A stretch of 64,000 nt of DNA from a virus (IMGVR_UViG_3300020598_000119); one strand, 5' to 3'; shown: positions 30,543 through 47,325, counted from the first letter of the stretch. The notes: generated by a model from the letters alone, not told the origin. Made by a program: numbers and translations.

Positions 30543-30576
30543 TTAAAGGCGGCGGTGTCACACGGATAGGAAGCAG

Positions 30577-31047
30577 ATGGATTTTAGTAGTTGGAATATG
30601 CGACGCAGGCTGATCGACAAAGATTTTCGTGCGGATTTGGAGGCCACCATTGAATGTGGGCCATTCGATGGTGGCTGCGTTATCGTTGCGCAGGCTCTAA
30701 AGGCAGTCATTGGCGGCGAAATTGTCGGTCTGGTAGACAAGGACGATGCAGTTGGTCATGCTGTCATTCTATTGGATGGAAAGCTTTGGGACTACGATGG
30801 CCCGATGCCGCCAGTGGCATTTATCGCGCGCTTCAATCGCCTTGAAGCTCCATGGAAATGCGTCGGATACCGGACGTTTCATGAAAATGATCTTGAATTA
30901 GCCTATCGCGATGACGAACTAGTCCGACGCTTGGTTAAATTATTTCGTCGAATGATGCCAGATTTGGCAAGGCAAAAAGTACAGTCATCCACTCTCGATG
31001 AAGAGTCACAACACACCGTTTACACGCCCAGGCTTGGGCCATCGTAA
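30577..31047 (+). CDS. Hypothetical protein, possible Cys-His-Asp fold
   Basis: DGGCVIVAQAL...GHAVI...WDYDG, resembles 21842..22303. Confidence 0.55.
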   Translation: MDFSSWNMRRRLIDKDFRADLEATIECGPFDGGCVIVAQALKAVIGGEIVGLVDKDDAVGHAVILLDGKLWDYDGPMPPVAFIARFNRLEAPWKCVGYRTFHENDLELAYRDDELVRRLVKLFRRMMPDLARQKVQSSTLDEESQHTVYTPRLGPS

Positions 31048-31200
31048 TGTTCACCCGTTTAATAATACGAATGAACTCGAATCATTTCGCTAGGTCGCCA
31101 AGACCACATCTATTGTTGATGTTGAAAACACCCATCTTTTGGATGCCGGTGGCGAACTGTTGTATGTTCGCAACGAATATTCAAACAAAGGCTTCATATC

Positions 31201-33171
31201 ATGCTTAAATCGATACTAGCTGCAGCACTCATTTCGACGTCACTGAGTTCAGTTGCATACGCTGACACGAAAGGCCCCATCCGATCCGTAACTCTCTCTT
31301 CGGGAGGTCTCGCAGAAATTCACAGAACGGCCTCCATCAAGGATGATGGAAAAATCCTCATTGAAGTTCCCCTTGATCAGGTCGACGACATTTTGAAAAG
31401 CCTGATCGTGAAGGACAGGGAGGGGACCGTGAAGGGGATTTCTCTCGCTGGTCCACAGCCAGTCGAAGAAACATTCCGGACACTACCGTTCTCAGCTGGA
31501 GACCTGCAGAGCCTTCCACAGTTGCTCTCCAACCTTCAGGGAGCCAAGGTGTCTGTCACATCATCCGGCCAGGCGCTTCAAGGCAAAGTTCTTGGTGTGT
31601 CCTCAAAGCAGAGTGAGGAACGAGGCGTTCAATATGTTCTCAGCTTGCTGACCACGACAGGAAAGTTGACCAGCATGCCGCTGGATAGTTCGACAGAAGT
31701 CACCATAGAAGACCCAGACATTCAGGCCAAAATCGCTGCCGCAGTTGATGCAGCAGGGAAGAGGAAGTCAGACGGTTCACGCGTTATTGCCATCGAAATG
31801 GGTGGCAAAGGCAACCGTGACATCGATGTTTCCTACGTCGTCTCGGCCCCTGTTTGGAAAACGGCATATCGAGTGGTGGTCGAGGACGACAAGAAGGCTC
31901 GCATTCAGTCCTGGGCCATACTTGAAAACGCCAGCGGTGAAGACTGGAAGGACGTCTCGATCACCCTGTCGTCAGGCGCTCCTGTAACACTCAAACAGCG
32001 TCTCCACCAACGTATCTGGAAAGATCGCGCCGATGTCGCCATCAGCACAGCAGCAAACGCAGCCCCAAGGATGGATCGAGGTGAACTAGCGAGGCGTAAT
32101 AGCGCCAGCATAGGTGCAAAAGCGGCGATGGCCCCGATGCCGACCATGCAAGCGGCCGGAGCAATGGCCTTTGGTGCTGAAGTCGCAAGCTATGATATGG
32201 CGAAGGCCGAAGTCTCCGATGCGGTCGAAAACGACATCTCGACCTCGTTCACCATCAAAGGATCGCACGATGTCACGAACGGCGACACGCTTTCAGTACC
32301 TATCATTGACCAGGACGTCGATGCAGAAGTCGTGTCCGTTTACACGCTACATCAGTCGTCGGAAAATCCCGTCGCTGCTATCAGTTTCAAGAACTCGACG
32401 GGCGCTGGTCTGCCAGCGGGCATCCTAACAGTCTATGACAAGCACAACGGCTATGTGGGCGATGCACAACTGCCCAGCCTTGCTCCTGATGAAACCAGGT
32501 TTGCAAGCTTTGCCACCGACAAGAAAGTGACTGTCACCCCCGACGCGAAGAACGGTCGAACCATCCGATCCATCAAAGTCGTCGACGGAGTGATCACGAC
32601 GTCAGGCGTCATGAGAAATTCGACCACTTACACAATCTCAACGGCACCAGATGCAGAACGAGCCGTAATCATCGAGCATCCGAAATTGAACGGCTGGAAG
32701 TTCATTTCAGACGCCAACGTGACTGAAACGACGACCCATTATCGCATAAAAGTCAAAGCGCCAGCAGGAGAGCGCACAACAGTCAACGTCGTGGATGAGA
32801 TGCCCCTCGACGAGAGCTACACTGTCGGCGACATCAACTCCTCGATGATTGCGATGTGGGCCAACGACACCACTGACGAAACTTTGAAGGCAAAGCTCGA
32901 AGAATTAGCTGACCTCAAACAGAAGCAGATGACCGCTCAGTTTAGAGTAGAGGACCTAAACAGACAGATCGACCTCGTCTACAAGCAGCAGGACCGCATT
33001 CGCCAAAACCTGTCAGCAGTGCCGACAACAAGCGACATACATAAGAAGTATCTCCAGGCCTTGGAAGATTCAGAGGTCGCCCTCAAGAAACTCGAAGCGG
33101 ACTCAGAGGAGAGCATACAGACATTAAATCGCTGGAAGGCAACAGTAGATGACGTCGTGAGAACCTTATGA
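31201..33171 (+). CDS. DUF4139-domain exported protein
   Basis: Signal peptide, IRSVTLSSGGLAE, P.WK..YR, EN.SGEDW.DV, C-terminal coiled coil. Confidence 0.8.
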   Translation: MLKSILAAALISTSLSSVAYADTKGPIRSVTLSSGGLAEIHRTASIKDDGKILIEVPLDQVDDILKSLIVKDREGTVKGISLAGPQPVEETFRTLPFSAGDLQSLPQLLSNLQGAKVSVTSSGQALQGKVLGVSSKQSEERGVQYVLSLLTTTGKLTSMPLDSSTEVTIEDPDIQAKIAAAVDAAGKRKSDGSRVIAIEMGGKGNRDIDVSYVVSAPVWKTAYRVVVEDDKKARIQSWAILENASGEDWKDVSITLSSGAPVTLKQRLHQRIWKDRADVAISTAANAAPRMDRGELARRNSASIGAKAAMAPMPTMQAAGAMAFGAEVASYDMAKAEVSDAVENDISTSFTIKGSHDVTNGDTLSVPIIDQDVDAEVVSVYTLHQSSENPVAAISFKNSTGAGLPAGILTVYDKHNGYVGDAQLPSLAPDETRFASFATDKKVTVTPDAKNGRTIRSIKVVDGVITTSGVMRNSTTYTISTAPDAERAVIIEHPKLNGWKFISDANVTETTTHYRIKVKAPAGERTTVNVVDEMPLDESYTVGDINSSMIAMWANDTTDETLKAKLEELADLKQKQMTAQFRVEDLNRQIDLVYKQQDRIRQNLSAVPTTSDIHKKYLQALEDSEVALKKLEADSEESIQTLNRWKATVDDVVRTL

Positions 33172-33292
33172 ATTGATGCTTGCGTGCCAGCAAACCAATA
33201 TGAAGGCATGACCAAAGGAGTGTTGTGTCTTCATTATTGAGCCGAGCAACAGAAAACCCGTATCGCTACACAACATTCCTCTGTCTCTACTG

Positions 33293-33802
33293 ATGGAGCC
33301 AGAAAACGCGTCTAGCCATGAGGAGGAGATGCTGAAGCTTGCTCTGTGTGGAAAGACCTGGAACGGCAAAGCCCTTCACAATCCGCTCGAACTACTCAGA
33401 AAGCACGCCAATCGGACCTTTAAAATGCGGCACAGGTTCAATGTTTCCTCAGAAAGTGGATACGTCTGGATCAGCCCAAAAGAGCCGGATGAAGAAGGGA
33501 TTATCGCCATCTATGAAAAGGGATCTAGAGCATTTGTCGGTGGCATCAGCAAGAATTGGATCGCTGTTGACGAAGCGCACCACGGAGCTGGCCTCGGAGC
33601 CGAATTATTCATTCGAGCGTTCGACGCGATGATCAAACATCCAGATACCATGAACGTAGGGCACAAGCTGACAAAAGCGGGTCGTGCATGCCTTATGAAG
33701 GCTCACAAGATCGCGATACAACGCGCTATCGACAGCGGCCTCGAAGTACCAGGCGAAGTCCTCGTAGATTACCCAGAATTCACCGTTAGCCCATCAATTT
33801 GA
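33293..33802 (+). CDS. Putative GNAT-fold protein
   Basis: IAVDEAHHGAGLGAEL acetyl-CoA-binding-like motif A, T.AG.A. Confidence 0.55.
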   Translation: MEPENASSHEEEMLKLALCGKTWNGKALHNPLELLRKHANRTFKMRHRFNVSSESGYVWISPKEPDEEGIIAIYEKGSRAFVGGISKNWIAVDEAHHGAGLGAELFIRAFDAMIKHPDTMNVGHKLTKAGRACLMKAHKIAIQRAIDSGLEVPGEVLVDYPEFTVSPSI

Positions 33803-35491
33803 CTCGCGGTCTGGACGCGGAGTCGGAACGGGTATGTTCTCCAAGGTGATGTTTTCGGCTTCCATGGCCGCCTGTTCAACCACAGGTGCGATTGCAGCCT
33901 TTGCAATCTTAGTGTTCTCGTAAAGGACTGGAGCAGGCAGGTGGGACACTATGAGGTTCCAAGGGCCTATCGAACCAAGACCACGGCCAAGCTTCGAAAA
34001 TTCCGGCTGTATCGCTATTGCGCCGTGCATCAGATGAGCAACTGGGGCACCGCTCTTTATCTGAGCGAAAGCGGCGTTCGAGGTGACTACGTTGCCAGAC
34101 ATGCCCATGAATATGAAGGCACTAGCCATGACTGAGAAACCGAGGGCGTGGCGAACACCAGTGTTTATGAACTGAAGCTTCGTCCGGCCAGCCAAAATCT
34201 GTATGAGATAGGTCGAGAACTTATATATGTGCAACATCGCGCCAGCTATCGAAAGCAGGATTGCCATCACCGGAACTTGGATCATTTTCACTGCATTGGT
34301 CCCGAGCTTCTCGAACTCGTTGCCATTCGCGAACTGCGTGGCAGGGGCATCAAACGCACGAGCAAAAATGTCGGCATTACTGGAAGCAAGCGGCTCATAG
34401 ACCAGCTTTGAAAAATCTGCATCGGACATCGTATCGCCCAGAGGGATGGATGACTTCGGAAGCTTGAACACCGAGCGAAGCTTGTTGTGAACGGCGGGAT
34501 GGCTGAAGAATTCCTCAAACCCGAGGTCGGGGTCTATGACAGAACCAAACTGTTCTCGTATGCCCTTATCAAAAGATGCCCTAACTTCGACCTTGTACTT
34601 CTTGCCGAATTCATGGGCGAACACATCGCGATCAAGCGGGTTCTGCTTGTTCGTAAAGTGCAGGCCGTGTTTGCGGAATTCAGTACGAGCAACCTCAGCC
34701 TTCTTTTCCTTGTCATACCAGTACCACAAGCCATTCGCCTTCTTCCGAGCAGCGTCTTCGAACTTGCTTACGGCCCTGTTGGCTTCGCGGTTCAATTCCT
34801 GAAGAGCTTCGTGATACTTGCCAACAGCAACTTGGTACTGAGCATATATCTCTTTAGATACGGTGCGGCTCTCAGTGGAGAATTGCTTGCGGCCGTCCTC
34901 TAGGCTGCCAAGCGCACGATAAGCTTCCTCACGTATCATGTCCTTACGAGCGACGTTCGACATTTCAAACAGCTCGTCAGCGGATGCTCCAAGCGAAGGT
35001 ATTGCAGACACAAACGTAAGCCAGTCACTAGTGTCGGTCATAGCGATATCGCCAACGCCGTTCTGAGCTATCTGACGTTTTATAACATTCGTCTGAAATG
35101 CAACGCGGCGCTGCTCAGGCGTGCTGGAGGCACCCAGATAGTCGGCAATGTAGTTCAGAGCGTTAAACGTGCCGCCAATTGATAGCGACGTCCAAACGGC
35201 AATCCAGAAAGCGTTGCGAAACTTGGAACGCCTGAAGTTCATACGAGGAAGAACAATTGCGCCCACAACAAAGATTGCGACCGCGCAACCAGTCAGAATG
35301 CGACCAAAAAACTCTATGTCATCGATGTCCGATAACGAAGGGTTACCACCCATGAATTCGATCAAATGAACAGAGAAAGGCACTTCAATAGTCAGATATG
35401 CTAAGGTAACGGCCAGCATTACATAGACATATACGGGAACTTTCTTGTTCGAGGTTGAGAAATTCAAAATCAGCTCCTTTAATGGGGCCAA
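33794..35491 (-). CDS. Hypothetical membrane protein
   Basis: 565 aa; N- and C-terminal TM clusters flank a large soluble domain. Confidence 0.75.
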   Translation of the reverse strand: MAPLKELILNFSTSNKKVPVYVYVMLAVTLAYLTIEVPFSVHLIEFMGGNPSLSDIDDIEFFGRILTGCAVAIFVVGAIVLPRMNFRRSKFRNAFWIAVWTSLSIGGTFNALNYIADYLGASSTPEQRRVAFQTNVIKRQIAQNGVGDIAMTDTSDWLTFVSAIPSLGASADELFEMSNVARKDMIREEAYRALGSLEDGRKQFSTESRTVSKEIYAQYQVAVGKYHEALQELNREANRAVSKFEDAARKKANGLWYWYDKEKKAEVARTEFRKHGLHFTNKQNPLDRDVFAHEFGKKYKVEVRASFDKGIREQFGSVIDPDLGFEEFFSHPAVHNKLRSVFKLPKSSIPLGDTMSDADFSKLVYEPLASSNADIFARAFDAPATQFANGNEFEKLGTNAVKMIQVPVMAILLSIAGAMLHIYKFSTYLIQILAGRTKLQFINTGVRHALGFSVMASAFIFMGMSGNVVTSNAAFAQIKSGAPVAHLMHGAIAIQPEFSKLGRGLGSIGPWNLIVSHLPAPVLYENTKIAKAAIAPVVEQAAMEAENITLENIPVPTPRPDRESN

Positions 35492-35582
35492 TATTATCCA
35501 GGTTCAAGAATTATGCAACAATAAAAATTGACAAGTTCAATAAAAATATAGGCTTATCAGGGGTTCACGGGCGTTCAGAAAA

Positions 35583-35948
35583 CTAGATACAGGGCTGAAT
35601 ACCGAGCCTGCTCTCGTCGTACACTTCTGCTCTTTGAAGGAGAGCGCTACCGGAAGCGGGGTCATTAATAGCCGAGTTAAGGGCACAAACAGAATCCTCG
35701 GTAGCCTCAAAACAAAGAATGGAGAAATCTGCGCTCAATCCGGCGTCAGATGAGGCATTTTTCGCAAAGTCTTCAAACACCTGCATGATACGAGCGACGT
35801 TAGTTACATCGCCATGTGCGATCATCTGGTTAGCAGAGTTGTCCCATCCGATAGACAATAAATCGCCAATATGGCAGATGTAATCCTGTTTGCCACTCGG
35901 TCTATTCTTCACAACTAAGTCGCCAATAATCTCATAATCTGTAGACAT
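35583..35948 (-). CDS. Hypothetical protein
   Basis: 121-aa ORF filling an intergenic gap. Confidence 0.65.
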   Translation of the reverse strand: MSTDYEIIGDLVVKNRPSGKQDYICHIGDLLSIGWDNSANQMIAHGDVTNVARIMQVFEDFAKNASSDAGLSADFSILCFEATEDSVCALNSAINDPASGSALLQRAEVYDESRLGIQPCI

Positions 35949-36093
35949 GTAGATACTGCCTTACTTTTCTAATTAAGGAAAATAATGCCGAGCTTTCTTG
36001 AAAAACAAAAGGGAAATCATATCCTCGCGTGAATATATAGAATACCTACATCACAGTCAGAAAGACAAAGACCGAGGCCCATTCTGCTTTCTC

Positions 36094-36396
36094 TCAATCT
36101 TCGAACGGATAAATGTCCAAGTCGCAAAAGCTGACACCAAGAGGGTTTGGAGACGGCAAGGGAATGTTCTTTCCTGCTCTAGACGAATAGACATACTCAG
36201 GAATCGGACGCATGGGCTTACTGTCGGCAGGAGCTATCGTCGTTCCTGGTATCATCTCAAGGGCGTCCCGAGAGACATTGCCAGACGGAACAGCTCGCAA
36301 AGATTCCACGCGAGTAATGGTGATCTTGTGTTGCGCTAAAACTGGGGAAGAAGAAGCCACCAATGAAGCCACAATAAGAACAAGCTTAGCGAGCAT
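36094..36396 (-). CDS. Small exported hypothetical protein
   Basis: Signal peptide MLAKLVLIVASLVASSSPVLA; SD GGAGG; coupled to the upstream gene. Confidence 0.55.
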   Translation of the reverse strand: MLAKLVLIVASLVASSSPVLAQHKITITRVESLRAVPSGNVSRDALEMIPGTTIAPADSKPMRPIPEYVYSSRAGKNIPLPSPNPLGVSFCDLDIYPFED

Positions 36397-36913
36397 TCCC
36401 GCGAACCTCCAAAATTGCATAGTCAACAACAGCCTTGAGATAGCGAACGCCAACAAGCGCTCGACCGCGAGAAGGCATGCTCTCTTGAACGGCATCGAAA
36501 ATCTCATAAGCCCGCTCTGCTTCGATTCCCAAAAAACCGAGCAACCGTCCGACGCTTTCGATTTCATAATCACGCTTCACATCAGCCGCTCGATGAAGCT
36601 CATCGAGCCAATCGGAATCAGCCTCTGGGGAGTCCGAAAAGACTTTCTTTCCTTTGAAGGACTGATTGAGCCGAGCAGCAACCCTAACCGGGTGCAGACC
36701 TTTCATCGTAAGCGTCTGCACTGACAAGCCATGCATCGCTTCAGCATCGACATCCCATCGGGTCATATCCCAATGTTTCGACGGATCGATAATTAGGTGT
36801 CCAAAAACATCATCAACCAGCCAACCGACCTCGACTGGAAATGAACCCTTCATCAGGCCGCTGGCTTCAACATCAATTAGAGCCGACTTTTTCCAAATAT
36901 CTGGAACGGACAT
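36386..36913 (-). CDS. DEDD-type 3'-5' exonuclease-like protein
   Basis: IDVEASG..PVEVGW, HGL, SDSPEAD; C-terminal H..D motif degenerate (GRALVG). Confidence 0.65.
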   Translation of the reverse strand: MSVPDIWKKSALIDVEASGLMKGSFPVEVGWLVDDVFGHLIIDPSKHWDMTRWDVDAEAMHGLSVQTLTMKGLHPVRVAARLNQSFKGKKVFSDSPEADSDWLDELHRAADVKRDYEIESVGRLLGFLGIEAERAYEIFDAVQESMPSRGRALVGVRYLKAVVDYAILEVRGNAR

Positions 36914-37035
36914 TCGCAGCCTACCTATTCACCCTCCAAAAAAATGGAGAAAAATGTTGAACAACTGATATTCTGCGATAATAAATTACGGAAAAATCAT
37001 CCGCAAACGAAAAGAGAAAATATTCGAGAAAGTAC

Positions 37036-37335
37036 CTACATCTTCATCGTTGGCGCTTCCTCAATATCTTCAACTTCTGGCTCCCTCCCCATCCATACGG
37101 TAGTGGCCAAAATGCGATCTTCATTGGAAGGATCAAGCGCTTCATTCGAAGCCCAATCCAAAAACTCAGAGTAGCCGCTACCGTGGGGTGGAGGAGGTGC
37201 CGAACGGCCAAACCACTTCGAACTCCGCTTTGCCTCTTGCTTAGGAGCGGATGTAGCCAACGAACGAGACGAAGACGTCATCTCATCGGTATCCTCCGGC
37301 TTAGTTCCAGGTCGTCTAAGTTTAAGCGCCATCAC
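37036..37335 (-). CDS. Small hypothetical protein
   Basis: Coupled to the CCA gene; ends EDIEEAPTMKM. Confidence 0.6.
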   Translation of the reverse strand: MMALKLRRPGTKPEDTDEMTSSSRSLATSAPKQEAKRSSKWFGRSAPPPPHGSGYSEFLDWASNEALDPSNEDRILATTVWMGREPEVEDIEEAPTMKM

Positions 37336-38498
37336 AACCTCCTAGCAGCGGGACCGCCATTCATAATCTCAGTGATCAGTTCCTCTTTTGAGAGCGTAAA
37401 GCCGGAGTCGATCCACTTGACCTTGGCCTCGTTCAGAGCCGCGCCCATGCCAGGACCCTTGTCCACGACACCTACGAGATCACGGCCCTTAAGGGGGAAG
37501 ACCGGAATATCGCCAGCCAACGCCTTTGCGGCCGCGTGAGCGCCAAGCGCAGAAAGAATTGGACAGGCGACAGCAGGATCAAGTCCATTCACTGCCTGAG
37601 TCAGCCAGTAGTGAGGGTCGCACTCAGCTGCAGCGAGGACCTGAGCTGCAGCAACAGCGTCCTTCAGCTCGGCATTCGACAATTTCCAGCGAGTTCCAAG
37701 CTCTTCGGCATAACTCTCATGCCCTGAGAGGATGCCCAACATCACCGATGGCCGCGCGCCGAACTCTCTGGCATCGGAAGCAATCCCGATATGTTCCTCG
37801 TCAATCGGCAGACCAATGACCTGGGCAACGCCCAAGGACGCCATCGGCCGCAGCTGCTTCGTGCCATTCGAATGCTGCAAGACCTTTGATATTTCGCTCC
37901 AGACACGCTCGACCGAGATACCGGAAAGCCCATGAGCGGTATCTTTAATCGCCTGCAGGTCATGCTCGGTCTCTTCGCCACCAAAACGAGCACGAAAACG
38001 AAAGAAGCGCAGGATGCGCAGGTAGTCCTCTTCAATACGCTCGCGCGCATTGCCGACAAATCTTACGCGCCCTTCATTGAGATCCTTCAAGCCGCCAAAA
38101 TAGTCATGCACCTGCCCGTCGAGAGAGGCCGACATCGCGTTGAAGGTGAAATCGCGTCGAGCCGCATCTTCCGCGAAGTCAGTGACATACTCCACAGTTG
38201 CATGACGTCCATCGGTCTCAACGTCTTTCCGGAGCGTCGTGACTTCATAGCCAACGTCCTCATACATGAGGGTGACGGTACCATGTTGCAGACCAGTCGG
38301 AATAACCCGATAGCCCTTACGCTCAGCCAGTTCCATTACGACCTCGGGCAGAGCGTCTGTAGCAAGGTCCATATCTTTCGGTTGCATACCGACAACCATG
38401 TCACGCACGGCACCTCCGACCAGGCGGGACTGAAACCCGCCTGCTGAAAGGAGATGACCAATTGCATGGATGCCACGATCCGTTATGGAGATTTTCAT
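37332..38498 (-). CDS. cca: CCA-adding tRNA nucleotidyltransferase
   Basis: VGGAVRD..DMDLAT, HGT, EVTTLR, RRDFTFNA, EDYLRILR; start after SD GAGG. Confidence 0.93.
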   Translation of the reverse strand: MKISITDRGIHAIGHLLSAGGFQSRLVGGAVRDMVVGMQPKDMDLATDALPEVVMELAERKGYRVIPTGLQHGTVTLMYEDVGYEVTTLRKDVETDGRHATVEYVTDFAEDAARRDFTFNAMSASLDGQVHDYFGGLKDLNEGRVRFVGNARERIEEDYLRILRFFRFRARFGGEETEHDLQAIKDTAHGLSGISVERVWSEISKVLQHSNGTKQLRPMASLGVAQVIGLPIDEEHIGIASDAREFGARPSVMLGILSGHESYAEELGTRWKLSNAELKDAVAAAQVLAAAECDPHYWLTQAVNGLDPAVACPILSALGAHAAAKALAGDIPVFPLKGRDLVGVVDKGPGMGAALNEAKVKWIDSGFTLSKEELITEIMNGGPAARRL

Positions 38499-38569
38499 GT
38501 TCACCTCAAATTGCTTATGTCGAATGTAACCGAACATGACGAAATTACCTACGGCCAAAGATGCGATCC

Positions 38570-38598
38570 TTGACTGAGGCGGCGACATTTACTAAACA
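38570..38598 (+). promoter_or_regulatory. Putative sigma70 promoter P1 of the Glu/Asp leader
   Basis: cTTGACT-N17-TAAACA. Confidence 0.55.
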
Positions 38599-38622
38599 CT
38601 AATAGAAACCTTGGAGTTAAAC

Positions 38623-38688
38623 ATGAACGGCATGCAGCACATTCTGCGCACTGAAGAACGTCGGGAGGACGATACCACCCGGCGGTAG
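38623..38688 (+). CDS. Putative attenuator leader peptide MNGMQHILRTEERREDDTTRR (Glu/Asp sensor)
   Basis: SD GGAG; GAA GAA..GAG GAC GAT codons match downstream tRNA-Glu(TTC), Glu(CTC) and Asp(GTC). Confidence 0.72.
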   Translation: MNGMQHILRTEERREDDTTRR

Positions 38689-38747
38689 CCGTTTATCGGC
38701 GGCCGTCAAGCACGCGGCCGCTCAAAAAGATATCTGAATTCTTTTTT

Positions 38748-38777
38748 AGGGGTCGCATTTGCGGCCCCTTTTATTTT
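38748..38777 (+). terminator. Attenuator terminator upstream of the Glu/Asp tRNAs
   Basis: AGGGGTCGC-ATTT-GCGGCCCCT-TTTATTTT. Confidence 0.8.
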
Positions 38778-38820
38778 CTAGGTTCAAACCTGAAACCATC
38801 CAACCAGAAAGGAGAAAACG

Positions 38821-38913
38821 ATGCCGAAAGGCGACGACGATAGCGAAGAACGAGAACGTGACGAAACCAAATTGCGAGCGAATTTCAACGAGGCCAAAGG
38901 CAGCGAACGATAG
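38821..38913 (+). CDS. Second short D/E-rich ORF MPKGDDDSEERERDETKLRANFNEAKGSER
   Basis: Strong SD AAGGAG; 10 of 30 codons are Asp/Glu. Confidence 0.5.
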   Translation: MPKGDDDSEERERDETKLRANFNEAKGSER

Positions 38914-38929
38914 CCCATATTCATAAAGC

Positions 38930-38997
38930 TAAGCCTTTGAAATAATTATCTTTTTTTGATTTTAATGGTTGACGCCGATTTTAAGGTGTGTCATATA
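38930..38997 (+). promoter_or_regulatory. tRNA promoter cassette P2
   Basis: TAAGCCTTTGAAA starts 39 bp before TTGACG-N17-CATATA, with T-tracts between. Confidence 0.7.
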
Positions 38998-39055
38998 TGA
39001 GTTCATCAAGAACGGACGAGCTGACAGACAAAATCAGCAAGATCGAAATTGATAA

Positions 39056-39127
39056 GCCGCCATCTTCTAGTGGTTAGGATGCTGCCCTCTCAAGGCGGTG
39101 ACGCGAGTTCGAACCTCGCTGGCGGTA
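39056..39127 (+). tRNA. tRNA-Glu(CTC), no encoded CCA
   Basis: GCCGCCA/TGGCGGT acceptor; CTGCC-CTCTCAA-GGCGG; one nt separates it from the next tRNA. Confidence 0.9.
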
Positions 39128-39128
39128 C

Positions 39129-39205
39129 GGTGATGTAGCTCAGTGGGTTAGAGCACCTGACTGTCGATCAGGGTGTCGTGGGTTCGAGTCCCATCATTGC
39201 CGCCA
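39129..39205 (+). tRNA. tRNA-Asp(GTC)
   Basis: CCTGA-CTGTCGA-TCAGG; G73; CCA. Confidence 0.92.
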
Positions 39206-39208
39206 CGT

Positions 39209-39283
39209 GTCGCTGTCGTCTAATGGTTAGGACGTCTGATTTTCAATCAGAAAATGGGAGTTCGATTCTCCTCAGCGGTACCA
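39209..39283 (+). tRNA. tRNA-Glu(TTC)
   Basis: TCTGA-TTTTCAA-TCAGA; CCA. Confidence 0.92.
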
Positions 39284-39379
39284 CTTTACCATAATCCCAC
39301 AGACCACTGGCCCCGCCGCGCAAGCGGATAAACTTCGTTCTGCTCCCTTAAAAGAAAAAGGCCCCAAAGGGCCTTAATC

Positions 39380-41506
39380 CTATTCTTCTTTACCGCCTCC
39401 TTGTCCACCACCTGACTGAGGTGGTGGCGGTGTCTTGACTTGAGGTTGCTTGACAGGAAGTTTCTGAGGGGCAATTGGGGCTTTAGCCGTTGCCATACCT
39501 GCAGCAACCATTGCGCCTGCGGCCGCATGAGTTTCCTGTCCATCATTGTAACCATGGGTACCAGAGAAGCCCATCCAATGCCCAACACGATCTGCAATAG
39601 TTGGAATGAGACCAAAAAGACGAAGCGTCAAATGCCACTGCATCCATGCCCACATAACAAGCTTAACCGCGTATTGAATGAAGAAAAGGATACCCATGCT
39701 ACCCGTTTGGGCATAAAAGGCCTCATCCCAGATAATGTTAAGGGACAACAAGAGAACTGGAAGCAACAACAATCCGCCAATAAATGCTAACATTCCAATA
39801 GCAGGTCGCAAGAACAGATTGAATATTAATGTAACACCAGGGGCCTGGTTACGATCAAAAAATTCATTGCCATCCATGCGAATGAATGCAAAGGCCCATA
39901 GAACGCCAGCGATTGCTGCTTCCAAGAACATTATCAGCCAAGACACACCCATCACAAACACCATAATCATTGGGATCATAGGCAGAACATAAGCATGTAA
40001 CATACCGACAACCAAAAAGATCAATATCAGATACGTGACCCACTGACCGAAATAACTCAGGACCCCGCTAAGAAATCCACTCGCGGCACCAACACCTGGT
40101 AACAGTTTAAAAAAGCCAGTGCCTTCGGCAGCAGCATTGGCAGTTCCATTTAGCAGAAGCATAGCAGCAATAGCTGAAGCAGCAGCACCGAGCAAGTAAT
40201 GGCCATAGGTAATCATAGACCCAATAGGATCACCTGACATATTCTTAATCTGCATATCATCGGCAGATGGCAAAATTGAGGACAATAAGGTAGTTACAGT
40301 ATCACCACCATCGGAAGCAATCATACTACCATCTTCAGACAACGTCATATTATCAAGTGCGCGTGCCGCCAACACTGCATTGAAAGCAGCGGCGTATGCC
40401 TCATAATATGAGCGTCCAGGATTCGGAGTCGTCTTAACTGGAGTAGCATTCGCCAAAGAAGATGTTGTTCCCGAAATTTTCGATATGTCTCGCTCGTAAG
40501 AGCCAGCCATCATAAAGCCGTACTCTTTAATCCGCTTTGCCAGATTCTCTTTATTCTCAGATGAGGCCCCCTTGTAAACCTCAGATGCCGCTGCTCCCAC
40601 TGCTTTGTTCCATTTTCTTGCCTCATCTTCGATAGTGGTTGCAATGTGCTTAGAAATAATACCGGCCTTTTCAAGCTCTGCAGCGACTTCACCTGCAGGC
40701 CGATCAGAATACGACTTTGTAGCAAAATACTCGCCGAGAACCGACATTTTGTCTTCTGCCGATTTTCTCACATCAATTTTACTGCGAACCGTATTAATGA
40801 CCGCTTGAGTAGCATCGTCCCGCTTCTTGTGAAAGTCTGAAAATCTACGGGTTTTATCTTCCTCGGAACCTGCGAGACCATCATCCGCAATTGTGGTTGT
40901 GAATCCAATCGAACCACACCAACCATAACTCCACGTAGTGGTTATAGAACCAGACTGTATTCTCGTAGTTGGCTTCTCGGGCAGAGCGATCTCCCCGCTC
41001 ACACCAAAATAAGAATTATTGTAGATTGCATTACGAACAGTGGTACACACTTCGCGCTCTATAACATCGATGACCAATTGACGCCCAGACATTGACGTAA
41101 GGGATATCTCACCTCCGTTCGCGGCCAAGTGATCGATGTAGGCAATGATTGGCGCATTGCCCATGTTTACGGCTGCTCGACCTATAACCTCCTTTAGAAC
41201 ATAATGGACCGAAGAAAAACCACCGGCGATTGGGATCAAGAGACCGAATCCAAGGACAACACGCAGCGGTGCCCAAATTTGATGATATCTTTCTCCCAAC
41301 ACTTTGCCACTATAGGCCGAGGACACGATACCTATGACAATGTGCCAACCCAGAAAAAGACCGCCGAGAAGACCAAGCATCGATGTAAAAACGGAGAAAG
41401 CCTGTCCAAATCCGCTTTCTGGACCGGTATTAAACAAGACTTCGATCCACTTAAAAGCGATATCGTTGCCTTTTCCATCCCCTGGCGTTGCAAATAGGTC
41501 CAGCAT
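39380..41506 (-). CDS. dotA: DotA/TraY family type IVB secretion membrane protein
   Basis: SA..GKVLG...IWAPLR..LG.GLLIP N-terminus; YVLPMIP, EA.IA..LWA, LFLRP C-terminal TM bundle. Confidence 0.88.
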   Translation of the reverse strand: MLDLFATPGDGKGNDIAFKWIEVLFNTGPESGFGQAFSVFTSMLGLLGGLFLGWHIVIGIVSSAYSGKVLGERYHQIWAPLRVVLGFGLLIPIAGGFSSVHYVLKEVIGRAAVNMGNAPIIAYIDHLAANGGEISLTSMSGRQLVIDVIEREVCTTVRNAIYNNSYFGVSGEIALPEKPTTRIQSGSITTTWSYGWCGSIGFTTTIADDGLAGSEEDKTRRFSDFHKKRDDATQAVINTVRSKIDVRKSAEDKMSVLGEYFATKSYSDRPAGEVAAELEKAGIISKHIATTIEDEARKWNKAVGAAASEVYKGASSENKENLAKRIKEYGFMMAGSYERDISKISGTTSSLANATPVKTTPNPGRSYYEAYAAAFNAVLAARALDNMTLSEDGSMIASDGGDTVTTLLSSILPSADDMQIKNMSGDPIGSMITYGHYLLGAAASAIAAMLLLNGTANAAAEGTGFFKLLPGVGAASGFLSGVLSYFGQWVTYLILIFLVVGMLHAYVLPMIPMIMVFVMGVSWLIMFLEAAIAGVLWAFAFIRMDGNEFFDRNQAPGVTLIFNLFLRPAIGMLAFIGGLLLLPVLLLSLNIIWDEAFYAQTGSMGILFFIQYAVKLVMWAWMQWHLTLRLFGLIPTIADRVGHWMGFSGTHGYNDGQETHAAAGAMVAAGMATAKAPIAPQKLPVKQPQVKTPPPPQSGGGQGGGKEE

Positions 41507-41671
41507 GAGCCGCTCCCAAAATAAATAATTGATAAAGATGATAAATGTTATCCCCAGTCCATGCAAACATCGATTTTTTTCGTTTTTAGAAGAAAAATAT
41601 GTTGACAGGCATAAATAACGCCCCTATATAAGGGTCACAAAGACCGCAGACGATTTTATAAGGAGGATCAC

Positions 41672-41938
41672 ATGCGTAAGATTATTGCTATAGCACTCGT
41701 TGCCATCGCCGTAGCTCCGGTTGCATATGCCATGGTTGGCGACATAGCCCACGACATACGAATAGTTAACAAGCTTGAGTCTTCAAAGACTCTGAGCAAT
41801 AAGGCAATAGCTGAGGAGCGCGAGAAGACCTTTAAGGGCGCTTGCTCAATATATTTCGAGCAGAGCTACATAAGTCGCATAACCACCTCAACTGGGAGAA
41901 ATTTGGCATGGTGCGAAGACTACAAGGATCGCATGTAA
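41672..41938 (+). CDS. Small exported/membrane hypothetical protein
   Basis: SD AGGAGG, signal-like N-terminus, own TTGACA..TATA promoter. Confidence 0.7.
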   Translation: MRKIIAIALVAIAVAPVAYAMVGDIAHDIRIVNKLESSKTLSNKAIAEEREKTFKGACSIYFEQSYISRITTSTGRNLAWCEDYKDRM

Positions 41939-41959
41939 GCGACCCGATTAATATGAGCC

Positions 41960-42001
41960 AAATAGAAGGTGCTTGAACGTTCAAGCACCTTCTATTTTTT
42001 T
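41960..42001. terminator. Bidirectional terminator
   Basis: AATAGAAGGTGCTTGAA-CG-TTCAAGCACCTTCTATT perfect inverted repeat plus U-tract. Confidence 0.8.
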
Positions 42002-42579
42002 GGCACCCAGTCAAATGATTTGAGGAATGACAGCAAAGTTCCCAACTGTCGTGTTCTAACAACCCAGTTCGTATAGGCATATTTGAGCAAAAGAGGCCCG
42101 ACGATATAGAGTGGTACAAATCTCGTAAGAGCGTCAGCAAAGTCTCTCGGCGAGAATGAAAATAGCGACGCAACGCCAAGGAAAGCGGCTATTAAAGTCA
42201 GGGCAAAATACAATATTGATGCCCGATACGTATTTGTCTGGATCGCTATTATATCGTCTTCAGAGCGGTTATGAACGATCATAGACTGAATGAAGCGCTC
42301 CTTGGCATTACCGCCTTCAGGAAGAGCCTGCACATTTTCTCGCCCGAATACACTAGAAGTCAGTGTCGAAAGCCTGTTGAGAGACTCGTTTGCTGTGTTG
42401 CCAACGGTGCCCACAGATCTCTTGATCACAGACGCTCCGGTCAAGTAACCAACCTTACTGCGCTTCCAATCATCTGATCCGACCAGGTCTTTTACAATTA
42501 CGTTCTTGGCAAGAGCGGTCGTGTCGTAGCGTTCATCGACTTCTGTAGTTTCTCGCGCGGTCTTGTCGTTGTTTTTCAT
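41992..42579 (-). CDS. IcmV/TraX-like membrane protein
   Basis: ERF...M...SEDD then 2 TM helices then W.VR.R.LG...F; upstream of dotA as in icmV-dotA/traX-traY. Confidence 0.6.
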   Translation of the reverse strand: MKNNDKTARETTEVDERYDTTALAKNVIVKDLVGSDDWKRSKVGYLTGASVIKRSVGTVGNTANESLNRLSTLTSSVFGRENVQALPEGGNAKERFIQSMIVHNRSEDDIIAIQTNTYRASILYFALTLIAAFLGVASLFSFSPRDFADALTRFVPLYIVGPLLLKYAYTNWVVRTRQLGTLLSFLKSFDWVPKK

Positions 42580-42712
42580 GGCAACTCACTCATATATTCA
42601 TTAAGACCCAATTATCTGCCAAATACCTAGAGTTCTTGATATTTTAGGCAAATAATGTTGACTTAAAAATAGGAATTATGGCATTATATTGGCCAATTAG
42701 GAGTGAAATCAA

Positions 42713-42994
42713 ATGAAAGATTCTGACAACGTTGCCCGCCTTGAAGCGCTTCGCCCAAAATACGAACAGTTTCGCGATCTGAAAATTCGGACTGGCGCTG
42801 AATTGGAGCGTGCCGAGGCTGATCTTCAGGCCGCTCGTGATCAGGCAATTGCCGTTGCTGGCACTGATAACGAAGACGAAATTCGTCAGAAAATTCTTCA
42901 GAATTATGAGGAAAACACAAAGCGCGTCGACGAGTTCAGTTCGGTTCTAGACGCCATTGAGTCCAAGCTTGCTGCCGTCGAGGGTGGCGCTTGA
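42713..42994 (+). CDS. Small coiled-coil protein, first gene of the SbcCD-like operon
   Basis: SD AGGAG; helical heptads. Confidence 0.7.
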   Translation: MKDSDNVARLEALRPKYEQFRDLKIRTGAELERAEADLQAARDQAIAVAGTDNEDEIRQKILQNYEENTKRVDEFSSVLDAIESKLAAVEGGA

Positions 42995-43004
42995 GGTGAC
43001 GCAA

Positions 43005-45185
43005 ATGAACGTGGACGTCCTTAGTCATCGAAATCGTCTATCTGTAGCAGAACGCAAAATCGCAGAGCTTGTCGGTGAGCAAACATCGGTCATTCGTCGA
43101 CGTGAAACTCTGACAAATGAAGTGGGACTTGCAAAGGGGCGTCTCGCCAACAAATCAAAAGTCAGCGACTTCCTCGAACAATTGCAGGCTGACGCCAATG
43201 CCCGTCTCGTCTCGAACTATGAGATGTTGCTCACTGCCCTCGTGACCGAAGTGCTTCCGAATGAAGCACCGATTGGCCTCGATCTCCAGATTGAACGCGG
43301 CCAGCCGTCGCTCGATATCGTTTCCAGGCGTTCCAACGACCGTTCTGAGGATATCTATGAGGATCAGGGCGGAGCACTCACCAATCTGGTTTCTCTTGGC
43401 CTGCGCATGATTGGCGTCGTGCGTTCGGGCATGAACCGTTTTCTGTTGCTCGACGAAAGCGATTGTTGGGTCGCGACGGAACGGGTTCCATCTTTCTATG
43501 GCGTGGTCAAGGACGCTGCGCGCAAGATCGGCGTTCAGTGTCTCGCTGTGTCTCACCACGACGTGGCTACATTTAATGACGGCATCTCAATCGCAAAGCT
43601 CACTGGTCATCCAGAACACCCAGAAGGTGTCCGGATCGAAAACAATCCGCGTCCATATCCATGGACGAACGAGGAAACTGGTATCCGTTGGATTCGCCTA
43701 AAAAATTTTCAGGGCTACGTTGATGAAACTCTCCACCTGACGCCTGGCGTAAATGCTCTCGTTGGCACCAACAATATCGGCAAAAGTTCATTTGTTCGTG
43801 CTTTCCGGGCTGTTTTCTACGGTGAAGCGCGCGACAGCCTTATTCGGTGGGGCGAGCGCATGTGCACCGTCGAAATCGGTATGGCAGGTGGTCGTGTTCT
43901 GTGTTGGGACCGTCAGGCAAAGCGCAATCCGATCAATCGCTGGCGCTACCTTGAAGCTGACGGCTCTCTTGTCAGCGAAGAGTTTAACACTGGCGGCCGC
44001 ACGGTTCCTGATTGGATCATGTCCGAATTCAAGATCGGGTCTCTTGAGGGCATGGACATTCACGCCATCAAACAAAAAGAACCAGTCTTCCTGCTGAATC
44101 AGCCAGCTTCCAAGCGCGCTGCTGTGCTGTCTATTGGCCAAGAAGCCAGCCACATCCGCAAGATGCTGACCCTTCATAAGGACCAGTGTGCGGCCGACAG
44201 CGCACGGGTAAAGGAAGGCGAAGCTGAAATGAGCGTTCTGCTTGATCGCCTAGAGAAGCTTTCCGCACTGCCAGAGTGTCGACTGCTGGTTGAAAAGGCG
44301 AGCCAACTCCTTCAGCAATTCCAGACCACTGCCGAAGAGACATCGAAATTGGAGCTTGCAGCCGATAGCCTGAACAAGGCGGTCGCAGTCAAAACTTCCA
44401 TCATCAGGAAGCTCAACGCACTGGCAAAGCTACCAGAGACTGAAGCTGTCCGAAAAATGGAACAGCAGGCCTCAACGATCTCTAAGCTTGAGGAGCTTGC
44501 AAGCGCGATTTTGGTCTCCAGTCAGAAGGTGTCCTCGAAACGAGGCGTTCTTAGTGCCCTTGCTGACCTGCCTGCGAATGGGCCTGCACTTATTAACAAT
44601 GAACGCCTCGTCAATGTCGCGCAAAATATCGAATCCAGTTCGCAACGCATTGCTCGCAACAAAAAGGTCGCCGAGGCTTTGGCATCACTGCCTGCTGTAG
44701 CACCGGAGCTTCATGACATCCGTTCCCTGAACTCAGCGCTCTCGACCATCGTGTCGGCTACAAAAACCATCGAACGCAATTCAAGGACGTTGGCGATCCT
44801 GCAGCACCTGCCTCAGGCAATGCCGGAGATCATCAGGAATGAAGAAGCCATCAAATGCGGAAAGGCGCTTCGGGATACGCGCATTTATGTAGGGAAGGTC
44901 AAGGAGCGGAGTGCAATCTTGGCCTCCCTTCCAGACGCAATGCCTCAGCTTGCCGACAATAAAGTTCCTGAAGATCTTCTGACTTCAATCGGGAAGGCGT
45001 CGTCGCGGGTTCAAGCCACAAAACAGAAGCTGGCACAGACCGAGATCGAGATGAAGAATGTAGAGAGCGAGCTGGAAACGGTTGTCGCCTCGATGGGCCA
45101 CACTTGCCCACTTTGCCACAGCACTATTGGAAGCGCGGCTTCCTTGCTTGGCCACAGCCACACGGAAGAGCACGCACATGACTGA
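43005..45185 (+). CDS. Circularly permuted SbcC/Rad50-like ATPase
   Basis: Signature/Walker B/H-loop (QGGAL, LLLDE, VSHH) precede LKNFQ and GTNNIGKS Walker A; coiled coil ends in CPLC. Confidence 0.8.
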   Translation: MNVDVLSHRNRLSVAERKIAELVGEQTSVIRRRETLTNEVGLAKGRLANKSKVSDFLEQLQADANARLVSNYEMLLTALVTEVLPNEAPIGLDLQIERGQPSLDIVSRRSNDRSEDIYEDQGGALTNLVSLGLRMIGVVRSGMNRFLLLDESDCWVATERVPSFYGVVKDAARKIGVQCLAVSHHDVATFNDGISIAKLTGHPEHPEGVRIENNPRPYPWTNEETGIRWIRLKNFQGYVDETLHLTPGVNALVGTNNIGKSSFVRAFRAVFYGEARDSLIRWGERMCTVEIGMAGGRVLCWDRQAKRNPINRWRYLEADGSLVSEEFNTGGRTVPDWIMSEFKIGSLEGMDIHAIKQKEPVFLLNQPASKRAAVLSIGQEASHIRKMLTLHKDQCAADSARVKEGEAEMSVLLDRLEKLSALPECRLLVEKASQLLQQFQTTAEETSKLELAADSLNKAVAVKTSIIRKLNALAKLPETEAVRKMEQQASTISKLEELASAILVSSQKVSSKRGVLSALADLPANGPALINNERLVNVAQNIESSSQRIARNKKVAEALASLPAVAPELHDIRSLNSALSTIVSATKTIERNSRTLAILQHLPQAMPEIIRNEEAIKCGKALRDTRIYVGKVKERSAILASLPDAMPQLADNKVPEDLLTSIGKASSRVQATKQKLAQTEIEMKNVESELETVVASMGHTCPLCHSTIGSAASLLGHSHTEEHAHD

Positions 45186-46194
45186 GACCTATCGCGAAGT
45201 GGAAGGCATCCTTTTTATCGGAGATCCGCACCTCAGCTCCAAGAAGCCTGGTCGACGCAAGGACGGAAACTTCAGTGCGACGGTTCTCAAGAAGATCGAG
45301 TACGCAATCAACATCTGCAATGAACGCAGGTTCGTACCCTGCTTCCTCGGCGACATGTTTGATGACGCTGTTGAGAAGGATGAATCGCTCAAGACAAAAC
45401 TCATCCGCATCCTGCGACAATGCTGGACGACACCAATCTCGAATGTGGGCAACCACGACAAGGTCAATGACACACTGACAGATTCCGATACGCTGGCGAT
45501 CATCGCAGAAAGTGGCGTTCTAAACGTCTGCACCAAGGCAGGGGCGTTCGAGACGTTCAAGATCGGCGACAAGATTGTAGGCCTCGGAGCGACACCTTAC
45601 GGCCAGAGCTTCCCAACCGACGCTCGCCCATTCTTCGGTCAGGTGGACCAGATCGTTTGGCTCACCCATCACGACGTCGCCTTCGAGAACCCTTATCCGG
45701 GATCGGTGGCTCCTCAAGCGATCATCGGCTGCAAGCTGGTCGTGAACGGCCATATGCACCTGCGCAAGAACGTTGTGAGGGTAGGGGCGACTGTTTGGTT
45801 TAATCCAGGCAACATCATCCGCCAGCATGTCGACGCCATCGATCATGAACCCGCCGTCTTCGCATTGACGGCCAAGGGAAGCCTCGAAAAGTTCGTGATC
45901 CCGCATGAGAAGATCATCTTTGACCTCACGGGCAAGCTGATCGATGCTATCTCGCCAGGTGAAGCACCGACTCCAGAATCGAACAAGGATTTCGATAGCG
46001 CCTTCGTAAACCTTTTGAACGCCAACAGCTCCATGGAAATGGCCAAGAGCGACGACGGCTCGATCCTCCTTGAAGACATCAAGGACAAATTCGAGCGAGA
46101 GAAAACCTCGGTCGAGGTCCAAGACATTGTTCTCGGCCTGCTATCTAGGGCCGTTAAGAATGAGAAACAACTTATCGCTGAAGTGAAGGTTTGA
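45178..46194 (+). CDS. SbcD/Mre11-like metallophosphoesterase nuclease
   Basis: GDPH, LGDMFD, GNHD, THH, NGHMH, NPG. Confidence 0.85.
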   Translation: MTETYREVEGILFIGDPHLSSKKPGRRKDGNFSATVLKKIEYAINICNERRFVPCFLGDMFDDAVEKDESLKTKLIRILRQCWTTPISNVGNHDKVNDTLTDSDTLAIIAESGVLNVCTKAGAFETFKIGDKIVGLGATPYGQSFPTDARPFFGQVDQIVWLTHHDVAFENPYPGSVAPQAIIGCKLVVNGHMHLRKNVVRVGATVWFNPGNIIRQHVDAIDHEPAVFALTAKGSLEKFVIPHEKIIFDLTGKLIDAISPGEAPTPESNKDFDSAFVNLLNANSSMEMAKSDDGSILLEDIKDKFEREKTSVEVQDIVLGLLSRAVKNEKQLIAEVKV

Positions 46195-46230
46195 GAGCCG
46201 CCAGGCTTACGTTTTGCCGCAAGACACACT

Positions 46231-46479
46231 ATGTATGCACAGGATCGCCTCGAAAGGGAGAATGCAATGAGAATCTCGGATGCTATTAAAAAGAATTCAG
46301 AATCGATCCGTCAAATGGGTCGAAAGGCTATCGAAGAAAGCAAGAAGAAGGGCGTGCCAGCCTACTATGTAGAAAAGGGCGAGGGAAAAACTATTACTCA
46401 AGAAAATCCAGACGGGACAAGAGTTCACATCGAGGGAGAGGAAGAGGGGGTGCAAAATGGAGCACGAATGGGAAGATGA
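46231..46479 (+). CDS. Small protein, putative antitoxin partner of the zeta-like kinase
   Basis: KAIEE.KKKGVP.YY...I..E.PDG pattern; overlaps the downstream gene. Confidence 0.55.
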   Translation: MYAQDRLERENAMRISDAIKKNSESIRQMGRKAIEESKKKGVPAYYVEKGEGKTITQENPDGTRVHIEGEEEGVQNGARMGR

Positions 46480-47092
46480 GTTATACTGCGTAATCCTTGC
46501 AGGTCCTAACGGATCAGGTAAATCGACGATTGCCAAGGAAATTGAAACGCCTGGAGAATTCATAAACGCTGACCATATTGAGGCGGCCCTTAAAAGGGAA
46601 GGTAACCCCAATGCTGGGTCTATTGCGGCGGGCAAAATAGCTATAAAAGCAATAAACAATAAGATCGAAACCAGAAAATCGTTCACGTATGAAACAACCC
46701 TAAGCAGCCATCAGTCTATGAATGTAATAAGGAGTGCAAAAGATCACGGATACACCGTAGATCTTCTTTTTGTCTGCGTAAATTCCACTCTCCTCAACGT
46801 CAAGCGAGTTCAGAGCAGAGTTGAACAGGGTGGGCATGATATCCCAATCGAAGCCATTACACGAAGATATGACAAGTCCTTTTCAAATCTGTCTCCAGCA
46901 CTACAGCTTGTTGATACTGCTCTTATTTATGACAACTCGGGCGAAAGCCCTCAATTGATTGCCCACGTTGAAGACAGAATGGTCATAGCTACCAACTTTG
47001 AGGATGGGAACGAGCTACACGAAAGAATTTTCGGCATATTAAGAGATAATTTTGAAATCACTTCAGATGCGAAAAAACCGGGACCAAGATGA
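46457..47092 (+). CDS. Zeta-toxin-like P-loop kinase
   Basis: AGPNGSGKST, INAD, ETTLS, RV..RV..GGH.IP, YDNS. Confidence 0.85.
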   Translation: MEHEWEDELYCVILAGPNGSGKSTIAKEIETPGEFINADHIEAALKREGNPNAGSIAAGKIAIKAINNKIETRKSFTYETTLSSHQSMNVIRSAKDHGYTVDLLFVCVNSTLLNVKRVQSRVEQGGHDIPIEAITRRYDKSFSNLSPALQLVDTALIYDNSGESPQLIAHVEDRMVIATNFEDGNELHERIFGILRDNFEITSDAKKPGPR

Positions 47093-47107
47093 TTATTCAT
47101 CAAGCCC

Positions 47108-47137
47108 TTGACGATTGCGCATCAATCGATGTATATT
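47108..47137 (+). promoter_or_regulatory. Putative sigma70 promoter P1 of the array leader
   Basis: cTTGACG-N18-TATATT. Confidence 0.6.
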
Positions 47138-47176
47138 GTAGAAAGAGCTAAATAGCTCAGGAGAAAAGGTATTCAG

Positions 47177-47299: not shown

Positions 47300-47325
47300 C
47301 AAAATCCCCAAGGTTCTGAAGAACC

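Follow-up and report, generated by a model that had tools for sequence, protein, structure and literature searches.

The Glu/Asp tRNA cluster and its upstream region

The window analyzed here is a stretch of 64,000 nucleotides from a virus (IMGVR_UViG_3300020598_000119), which encodes 19 tRNAs and also SbcCD-like proteins. The genes for tRNA-Glu(CTC), tRNA-Asp(GTC), and tRNA-Glu(TTC) form a cluster on the forward strand at 39056-39283 (ARAGORN; Rfam RF00005 at 55-68 bits), and are presumed to be the genes regulated by the elements described below. A CCA-adding enzyme gene (37332-38498, reverse strand; PF01743 at 2e-30, phrog_2244 at 6e-56) lies upstream and is transcribed divergently, as an earlier note on this DNA had stated; we used it as the anchor to locate orthologues, and obtained 12 syntenic copies of the locus (taken from about 80 CCA homologues) in which identity of the CCA enzyme runs from 95% down to 46%. 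Comparison of the sequence with the Rfam ends places an encoded CCA after tRNA-Asp and tRNA-Glu(TTC), and not after tRNA-Glu(CTC), so that only tRNA-Glu(CTC) would strictly need the neighboring enzyme; since two of the three tRNAs encode CCA, we no longer explain the presence of the enzyme next to the cluster by a missing CCA. A tRNA repair enzyme, a 788-residue fusion of P-loop kinase, metallophosphatase, and T4-type RNA ligase (28176-30542; phrog_8238 at 6e-167), is encoded 8 kb from the CCA enzyme, between tRNA clusters. In the divergent promoter region, the block at 38521-38545 (containing GAATGTAA) is nearly invariant across copies, with diverged flanks, and may be a promoter or operator of the CCA enzyme gene.

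On the forward strand, a promoter-like site (CTTGAC-17 nt-TAAACA, 38569-38598; the -35 hexamer CTTGAC is at 38569-38574) predicts a leader transcript starting near 38605. Its -35 hexamer is unchanged across six copies, and distant copies carry TTGAC-N17-A/T-rich sites at the equivalent position; the consensus promoter scan did not call the site, because the -10 is weak. A Shine-Dalgarno (SD) sequence, GGAG (38613-38616), stands 6 nt upstream of the ATG of a 21-codon ORF (38623-38688, with the stop codon TAG at 38686-38688), so that the predicted transcript, with the promoter-like site upstream of it, has at its 5′ end an SD and a short ORF that is predicted to be translatable. Five Glu/Asp codons are found in this ORF, at codons 11, 12, 15, 16, and 17 (GAA GAA at 38653-38658; GAG GAC GAT at 38665-38673); they are interrupted by two Arg codons and include no run of identical codons. 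All five had been pointed out in the earlier note, and its statement that the downstream tRNAs serve all four GAN codons agrees with the ARAGORN calls under standard wobble rules, by which tRNA-Glu(CTC), tRNA-Asp(GTC), and tRNA-Glu(TTC) together read the whole box. Within this single leader the enrichment is modest (5 GAN codons among 20, binomial P about 0.1), and Arg CGN codons are equally numerous; on composition alone the Glu/Asp leader would be a weak candidate, and it is conservation and geometry that make the case for it.

Between the leader ORF and the tRNA genes, the terminator scan called an intrinsic terminator (38748-38779), in which 38748-38756 pair with 38761-38769 (9 G+C-rich pairs, -17.2 kcal/mol) ahead of a U tract. 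Two further elements intervene before the tRNAs. One is a second small ORF on the same strand (38810-38913 including its SD, AGGAG; ATG at 38821, ORF 38821-38913), and the other is a second promoter-like site (38937-38998), 190 nt after the terminator, which consists of an A/T-rich upstream box, a -35 TTGACG at 38969-38974, and a -10 near 38992-38998. The TTGACG is kept in orthologues; the site was not called by the consensus promoter scan. No further terminator was predicted by the scan between 38780 and the tRNAs, so read-through would probably reach the tRNAs. Since the conserved second promoter follows the terminator, attenuation at this terminator would gate only the transcripts from the upstream promoter, and its share in making the tRNAs may be small.

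The second ORF has an acidic N-terminus: in each of the ten copies examined, residues 1-16 include 7-11 Asp/Glu. Its frame, its length, and the C-terminal half differ from copy to copy. It is possibly a second sensor of Glu/Asp codons, judging from this composition. We found no structure that it could control, and no second terminator behind it. Two candidate structures were rejected: a 6-pair helix noticed by eye in the window (38891-38896/38939-38944) is not conserved, and pairing of the U tract with the SD of the second ORF is weak. Upstream of the second promoter, at 38885-38912 and at the orthologous places, a small hairpin and, after it, a motif resembling GCGAACGA are conserved, as is an ATTGC motif some 20-30 nt before them; because the frame of the second ORF into which this element falls differs among the copies, it is an RNA or DNA element and not coding sequence. 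The promoter module itself (TTGAAAT box, A/T-rich stretch, TTGAC(G/T)) is present before all three tRNA clusters of the window (20297-20365, 38937-38998, and 47503-47560), the other two being the Lys cluster and the large cluster, and the consensus promoter scan missed it at all three.

Competing helices and the position of the ribosome

From the leader ORF to the terminator we distinguish six segments: 1 (38659-38665), 2 or A (38678-38691), 3 or B (38697-38707), 4 or C (38714-38722 plus an A-run), 5 or D (a U-run plus 38748-38756), and 6 or E (38761-38769). In the window they can form five successive helices, each of which excludes the next, with similar predicted energies (-13.5 to -18.4 kcal/mol). 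Helix 1:2 is wholly contained in the ORF (38659-38665 with 38678-38684, -13.5 kcal/mol); its 3′ strand overlaps segment A, and the last three Glu/Asp codons fall in its distal part and loop. Helix A:B (2:3) pairs 38681-38691 with 38697-38707 (10 pairs and one mismatch, -16.0 kcal/mol) and carries the stop codon in its 5′ strand; this is the hairpin that the earlier note had placed over the stop codon, and it is longer than described there. Helix B:C (3:4), the anti-antiterminator (38698-38706 with 38714-38722, -16.4 kcal/mol), is part of the minimum-energy fold, and shares segment B with A:B, so that the two exclude each other as that note had proposed. In helix C:D (4:5), the antiterminator, 38714-38719 pair with 38751-38756, stacked on the A-run (38724-38730) paired with the U-run (38740-38746), for -18.4 kcal/mol in all; it shares 38714-38722 with B:C and 38748-38756 with the terminator (D:E, 5:6), and the proposal that the freed segment pairs with the terminator arm also stands when B:C is absent. 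Segment 1 and the stretch immediately ahead of it carry the Glu/Asp codons, and segment 2 carries the stop codon.

Every sequence feature named in the earlier note was found. The region as a whole (38600-38785) folds at -75.8 kcal/mol, as compared with -51.1 +/- 4.2 kcal/mol in 200 shuffles (z -5.89, none as good). We rejected a long-range helix between the start-codon region and bases after the stop codon, which is present in the minimum-energy fold of the window but out of register in distant copies.

We then folded the RNA with a ribosome mask that extends from the 5′ end to 13 nt beyond the A-site codon. With the ribosome on the Glu/Asp codons and segment E not yet made, A:B and C:D form in 12 of the 12 copies, consistent with the earlier suggestion, drawn from structure, that a stall at these codons leads to read-through. 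With the ribosome at the stop codon, B:C and the terminator form in most copies, in line with the companion suggestion that a ribosome at the stop leads to termination. The 13-nt downstream footprint then also masks 2-3 nt of B, and the result is ambiguous in five copies, whose masked fold favors C:D as long as E is missing. The copy in the nearest genome, Mesorhizobium sp. SP-1A (G001; contig 2, 1,189,113 bp), gives an antiterminated state (A:B and C:D) that is 5.5-7 kcal/mol above the terminated one with the ribosome at codons 9-16, where it leaves A free; the difference is 12.5-16 kcal/mol for a ribosome anywhere from codon 17 to the stop. Step-wise folds of the window agree in order: with a stalled ribosome, A:B is best after B emerges and before C, and C:D is best after D and before E; with the ribosome at the stop, B:C comes first, and D remains free for E. 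The terminated fold is always more stable at equilibrium in the constrained folds, so in this model the switch must be kinetic and depend on kinetic trapping. The trp and his attenuators are also kinetic. The relay-type switch of the earlier note was reproduced by constrained folding in every copy. Helix 1:2 had been overlooked, and once it is included the layout is that of the his-operon leader, so that the "relay" is a known architecture and not a switch of a new kind.

Conservation across orthologues and sister units

The identity of the CCA enzyme at the loci is 84% (L055/L056), 81% (L057/L058), 70% (L059/L060), 57% (L061), 56% (L062), 53% (L063), 51% (L064), 50% (L065, an Agrobacterium rubi assembly), 49% (L066, a Rhizobium sp. 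MHM7A assembly), and 46% (L067). Among the matches listed from a metagenome scan with a degenerate pattern, one of 100 loci was a true orthologue (L074), and the others were chance matches; in IMG/VR, the CCA protein search yielded no locus, and 20 pattern matches were all unrelated. Among 61 relatives, the locus was found only in Mesorhizobium sp. SP-1A, where it is 88-90% identical overall to the window and fully identical over 38623-38750; besides this genome, a protein search across 401 genomes returned only host-type CCA enzymes (about 40% identity), and nothing concluded here draws on the unpublished genome G138 that appeared in that search. In phage databases, a distant BLAST search with 38000-40000 found only tRNAs and the CCA gene (67%) of Agrobacterium phage Atu_ph07, the nearest phage relative of the enzyme, and a megablast search with 30000-50000 found only tRNA matches.

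All copies have a TTGAC-type promoter-like site, an SD-like site, the leader, the terminator, the second small ORF, the second promoter, and a cluster made exclusively of Glu and Asp tRNAs, the order and number of which vary. The earlier note had singled out loss of the Glu/Asp codons in homologues as the observation to look for; they are not lost, and all 12 copies keep 4-5 GAN codons in a leader 20-22 codons long. Over its N-terminal half the leader peptide varies freely and is almost wholly diverged, and a core pattern, [E/D]-E-R-x-E-[E/D]-D, is kept. Substitutions at the Glu/Asp codons stay within the GAN box (GAG/GAA, GAC/GAG/GAA), with variable third positions and interchange of Asp and Glu. 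The last GAN codon is four codons from the stop in 11 of the 12 copies, and the stop codon lies within the A:B stem (two of its three bases paired) in 11 of the 12 as well. All five helices can be formed in each of the 12 copies (-8 to -27 kcal/mol), including the antiterminator C:D, which excludes the terminator, and the helix B:C that pre-empts it.

For covariation, we used 11 distinct sequences, aligned by MAFFT without guidance. A:B has 99% of its cells paired, with both partners changed at two pairs; one compensatory pair joins the third base of the stop codon (TAG/TGA) to C/U (4 A-U, 4 G-C, and 2 G-U). The terminator is paired in 90% of cells and has five compensatory pairs. For B:C (87.5% of cells paired) the changes are one-sided (wobble) only, and for the core of C:D (86% paired) there are wobble changes only and no compensatory change; we consider these two helices to be supported by conservation and formability, not by covariation. 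The joint covariation score of A:B and C:D was reached by only 1 of 500 shuffles, and sliding the partner columns lowers pairing from 89-94% to 64% or less (for A:B and C:D, from 94% to 59% or less). Every copy has helix 1:2 as well, and lining the sequences up at the stop codon reveals compensatory exchanges in it, from G-C to A-U and from G-C to U-A.

The Glu/Asp unit has sister units in the nearest genome. The last 289 kb of the Mesorhizobium contig (900001-1189113; L010-L024), with about 51% G+C inside a Mesorhizobium assembly, has 45 ARAGORN tRNA calls that together represent all 20 amino acids and are arranged by codon box in seven clusters; a lone 92-nt Phe tRNA call, inside a coding region and outside the seven clusters, is doubtful and was set aside. 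Ahead of each of the seven real clusters stand a promoter, a short ORF rich in the codons that match its tRNAs, and a terminator. For example, a run of 15 Ser/Gln codons precedes Ser/Gln tRNAs, and ACG, AGA, ACA, TGG, and TGT codons precede the genes for Thr-CGT, Arg-TCT, Thr-TGT, Trp, and Cys tRNAs. When every leader was scored against every cluster (a 7 x 7 matrix, binomial scores), the actual assignment came out first among the 5040 permutations. The sister units have their antiterminator strand within the ORF itself, where only a ribosome close to the stop masks it; their stop-to-terminator distance is 26-32 nt, versus 59 nt in the Glu/Asp unit, whose ORF ends earlier and which therefore needs an extra pair of segments. 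The second-promoter module precedes four of the clusters; three sister clusters lack a second promoter, and in these the terminator lies directly against the first tRNA. Two sister leaders with terminators are also seen in the window itself: a 17-codon ORF with a Lys-Arg-Lys core stands before two tRNA-Lys genes (20104-20212), and in a 40-codon ORF (47177-47360) 30 residues belong to the set N, V, G, A, M, I, and T, which is also the set of amino acids served by the 14-tRNA array that follows.

Searches of the Mesorhizobium contig for RepC, 16S rRNA, and Terminase_6N gave no match; the replicon may be a plasmid, a chromid, or phage-like. Relatives of the CCA enzyme are located on contigs of 0.5-1.7 Mb in Agrobacterium (including A. 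rubi), Rhizobium spp., and Sinorhizobium meliloti assemblies, and the Glu/Asp unit sits on a giant low-GC rhizobial replicon.

Proposed function and relation to known attenuators

We read the unit, with a probability of roughly 0.7, as a Glu/Asp-codon-sensing, six-segment, his-type leader-peptide attenuator that would gate upstream-promoter transcription into the Glu/Asp tRNA cluster. Since a Glu/Asp mini-gene and a stop/go switch lie ahead of Glu/Asp tRNA genes, the unit probably raises the output of these genes when ribosomes read Glu/Asp codons slowly. The signal would be the supply of charged tRNA-Glu and tRNA-Asp, which could drop if these tRNAs were damaged, cleaved, or poorly charged, or if the replicon's A/T-rich codons made heavy demands on them. 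A ribosome stalled at a GAN codon would melt helix 1:2 and leave segment A free; A:B would form once B is made, and C would stay single until D appears; with C:D formed there would be no terminator, and RNA polymerase would continue across the second small ORF and the second promoter until it reached the tRNA genes. An unhindered ribosome at the stop codon would instead cover A, B:C would form, D would be left for E, and transcription would end at 38779, giving an RNA of about 170 nt. In the absence of translation, 1:2, B:C, and D:E would form, which also predicts termination. The second promoter would then provide a basal tRNA supply, and the attenuated promoter an on-demand supplement.

A wider reading, to which we give slightly less than even odds, is that the Glu/Asp unit is a node of a codon-addressed, demand-driven tRNA supply network in which each cluster has its own codon-matched leader. 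In such a network, loss of one tRNA group (by an anticodon nuclease or a tRNA-modifying toxin) would switch on exactly the matching cluster; sensing would be two-tiered, by the attenuator leader and by the second, much more acidic small ORF; and the adjacent tRNA repair genes (kinase-phosphatase-ligase and CCA enzyme) would serve the same function, tRNA maintenance.

Several observations could also fit a sensor of translation speed or transcription-translation coupling in general, responding to antibiotics, ribosome shortage, or stress, in which the acidic codons are incidental or structural. In the leader, Arg codons are as many as Glu/Asp codons, and taken by itself the Glu/Asp enrichment falls short of significance; helix 1:2 and its loop contain three of the five GAN codons, whose conservation could therefore be structural in part; and the trn array of Anabaena, a known regulated accessory tRNA array, answers general translational stress (PMC10272220). 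We nevertheless hold a general sensor to be improbable: the GAN identity is kept while third positions change and Asp and Glu replace each other, no fold pairs the invariant GAA immediately 5′ of helix 1:2, each sister leader fits its own tRNA cluster, and the second ORF, too, is selected for Asp/Glu content while its sequence varies freely.

The two other explanations that we considered turn on what lies after the terminator. If the small ORF and the terminator were an independent small gene or small RNA, the terminator would insulate the strong tRNA promoter, read-through would be negligible, and the tRNAs would come from the second promoter only. An insulating terminator, however, needs no chain of four competing helices, no covarying stop-codon stem, and no fixed spacing from the Glu/Asp codons to the stop, and this explanation, which we rate as quite improbable, also has to face the three sister clusters that lack a second promoter and the absence of any other predicted terminator from 38780 to the tRNAs. 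It gains from the conservation of the second promoter and its A/T-rich box, recurring as they do before four clusters, and from Sinorhizobium, in which attenuator-derived RNAs and leader peptides can act in trans (PMC6614838, PMC7968998). It is very improbable, in our estimate, that the attenuator mainly controls the second acidic ORF (as a peptide or a second regulatory step), or that read-through lowers tRNA output by occluding the second promoter. The second ORF does come directly after the terminator, with a strong SD, and is conserved in all copies; but it is only the acidic N-terminus that is kept, which argues against a functional peptide, and the counterpart ORF in the Arg/Phe unit of the Mesorhizobium contig is Arg/Phe-rich, so that the composition of the second ORF follows the tRNA cluster.

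Leader-peptide attenuation is textbook knowledge for amino-acid biosynthesis operons and a few synthetase genes, in which slow decoding leads to more amino acid, and the regulation of bacterial tRNA genes is generally thought to be global, at promoters. If the Glu/Asp-sensing attenuator is real, decoding speed would set the transcription of tRNA genes, codon family by codon family, and such cis-acting control, specific to an isoacceptor group, would be a new regulatory layer for tRNA genes. It would also offer a way to learn why tRNA arrays are carried by mobile elements and large phages (to compensate for codon usage, or to replace tRNAs lost to defense nucleases), with the leaders predicting which stress activates each array. 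The unit is small (about 170 nt) and portable, and could be put to use as a natural biosensor that reports how abundant, or how well charged, specific tRNAs are.

In a cmscan search of 36000-42000 against Rfam (E up to 1), only the three tRNAs were found, with no match to a leader family and no sequence relationship; the unit would work like the amino-acid leaders of Rfam (His, Thr, Leu, Trp, Phe), but by its sequence is not a member of any of these families. The closest likeness is to the enterobacterial his-operon leader (hisL), which is described as forming AB, CD, and EF when it terminates, and BC and DE when A is covered by the ribosome (PMC10989985). Both hisL and the Glu/Asp unit have six segments and five alternative helices; a ribosome on the first segment gives 2:3 and 4:5 and no terminator 5:6, and free or no translation gives 1:2, 3:4, and 5:6. 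The Glu/Asp unit differs from hisL in having no run of identical codons, in the location of its stop codon in segment 2, and in its output, which is tRNA and not biosynthetic enzymes. Multivalent attenuators are known as well: the thr leader samples Thr and Ile codons, and the ilvGMEDA leader samples Leu, Val, and Ile codons, the amino acids in each case sharing a biosynthetic pathway. The Glu/Asp leader resembles them in that one leader samples codons for more than one amino acid; its codons, however, match the set of downstream tRNA genes.

Other systems resemble the unit in part. The trn array of Anabaena sp. PCC 7120 consists of 26 accessory tRNA genes on a megaplasmid, with a single promoter and the repressor TrcR (PMC10272220, which mentions neither a leader peptide nor attenuation); it is likewise an accessory tRNA array on a large extrachromosomal element that is turned on when translation is in trouble, whereas control of the Glu/Asp unit would be in cis, RNA-based, and cluster by cluster. 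In the Salmonella mgtCBR leader there are two short ORFs in series, one of which senses a specific charged tRNA (PMC3641672); tandem short ORFs in one leader are the shared feature, and the difference is that the second ORF of the Glu/Asp unit comes after the terminator, with no controlled structure found. The tRNA arrays and repair genes of phages, jumbo phages, and mycobacterial plasmids are seen as a supply against tRNA-targeting defenses (PMC12803027), and they share with the present locus the clustering of accessory tRNAs beside tRNA repair genes; no codon-matched leader for such arrays was described in the literature searched. Ribosome-mediated attenuation operates in the same host family, at Sinorhizobium trpL (PMC6614838). 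We found no publication on leader-peptide attenuation of tRNA genes in the full-text literature, the coverage of which leaves out most subscription journals. Set beside these systems, the Glu/Asp unit would represent a known mechanism, a his-type, multivalent leader-peptide attenuator, applied to an unprecedented target, tRNA genes.
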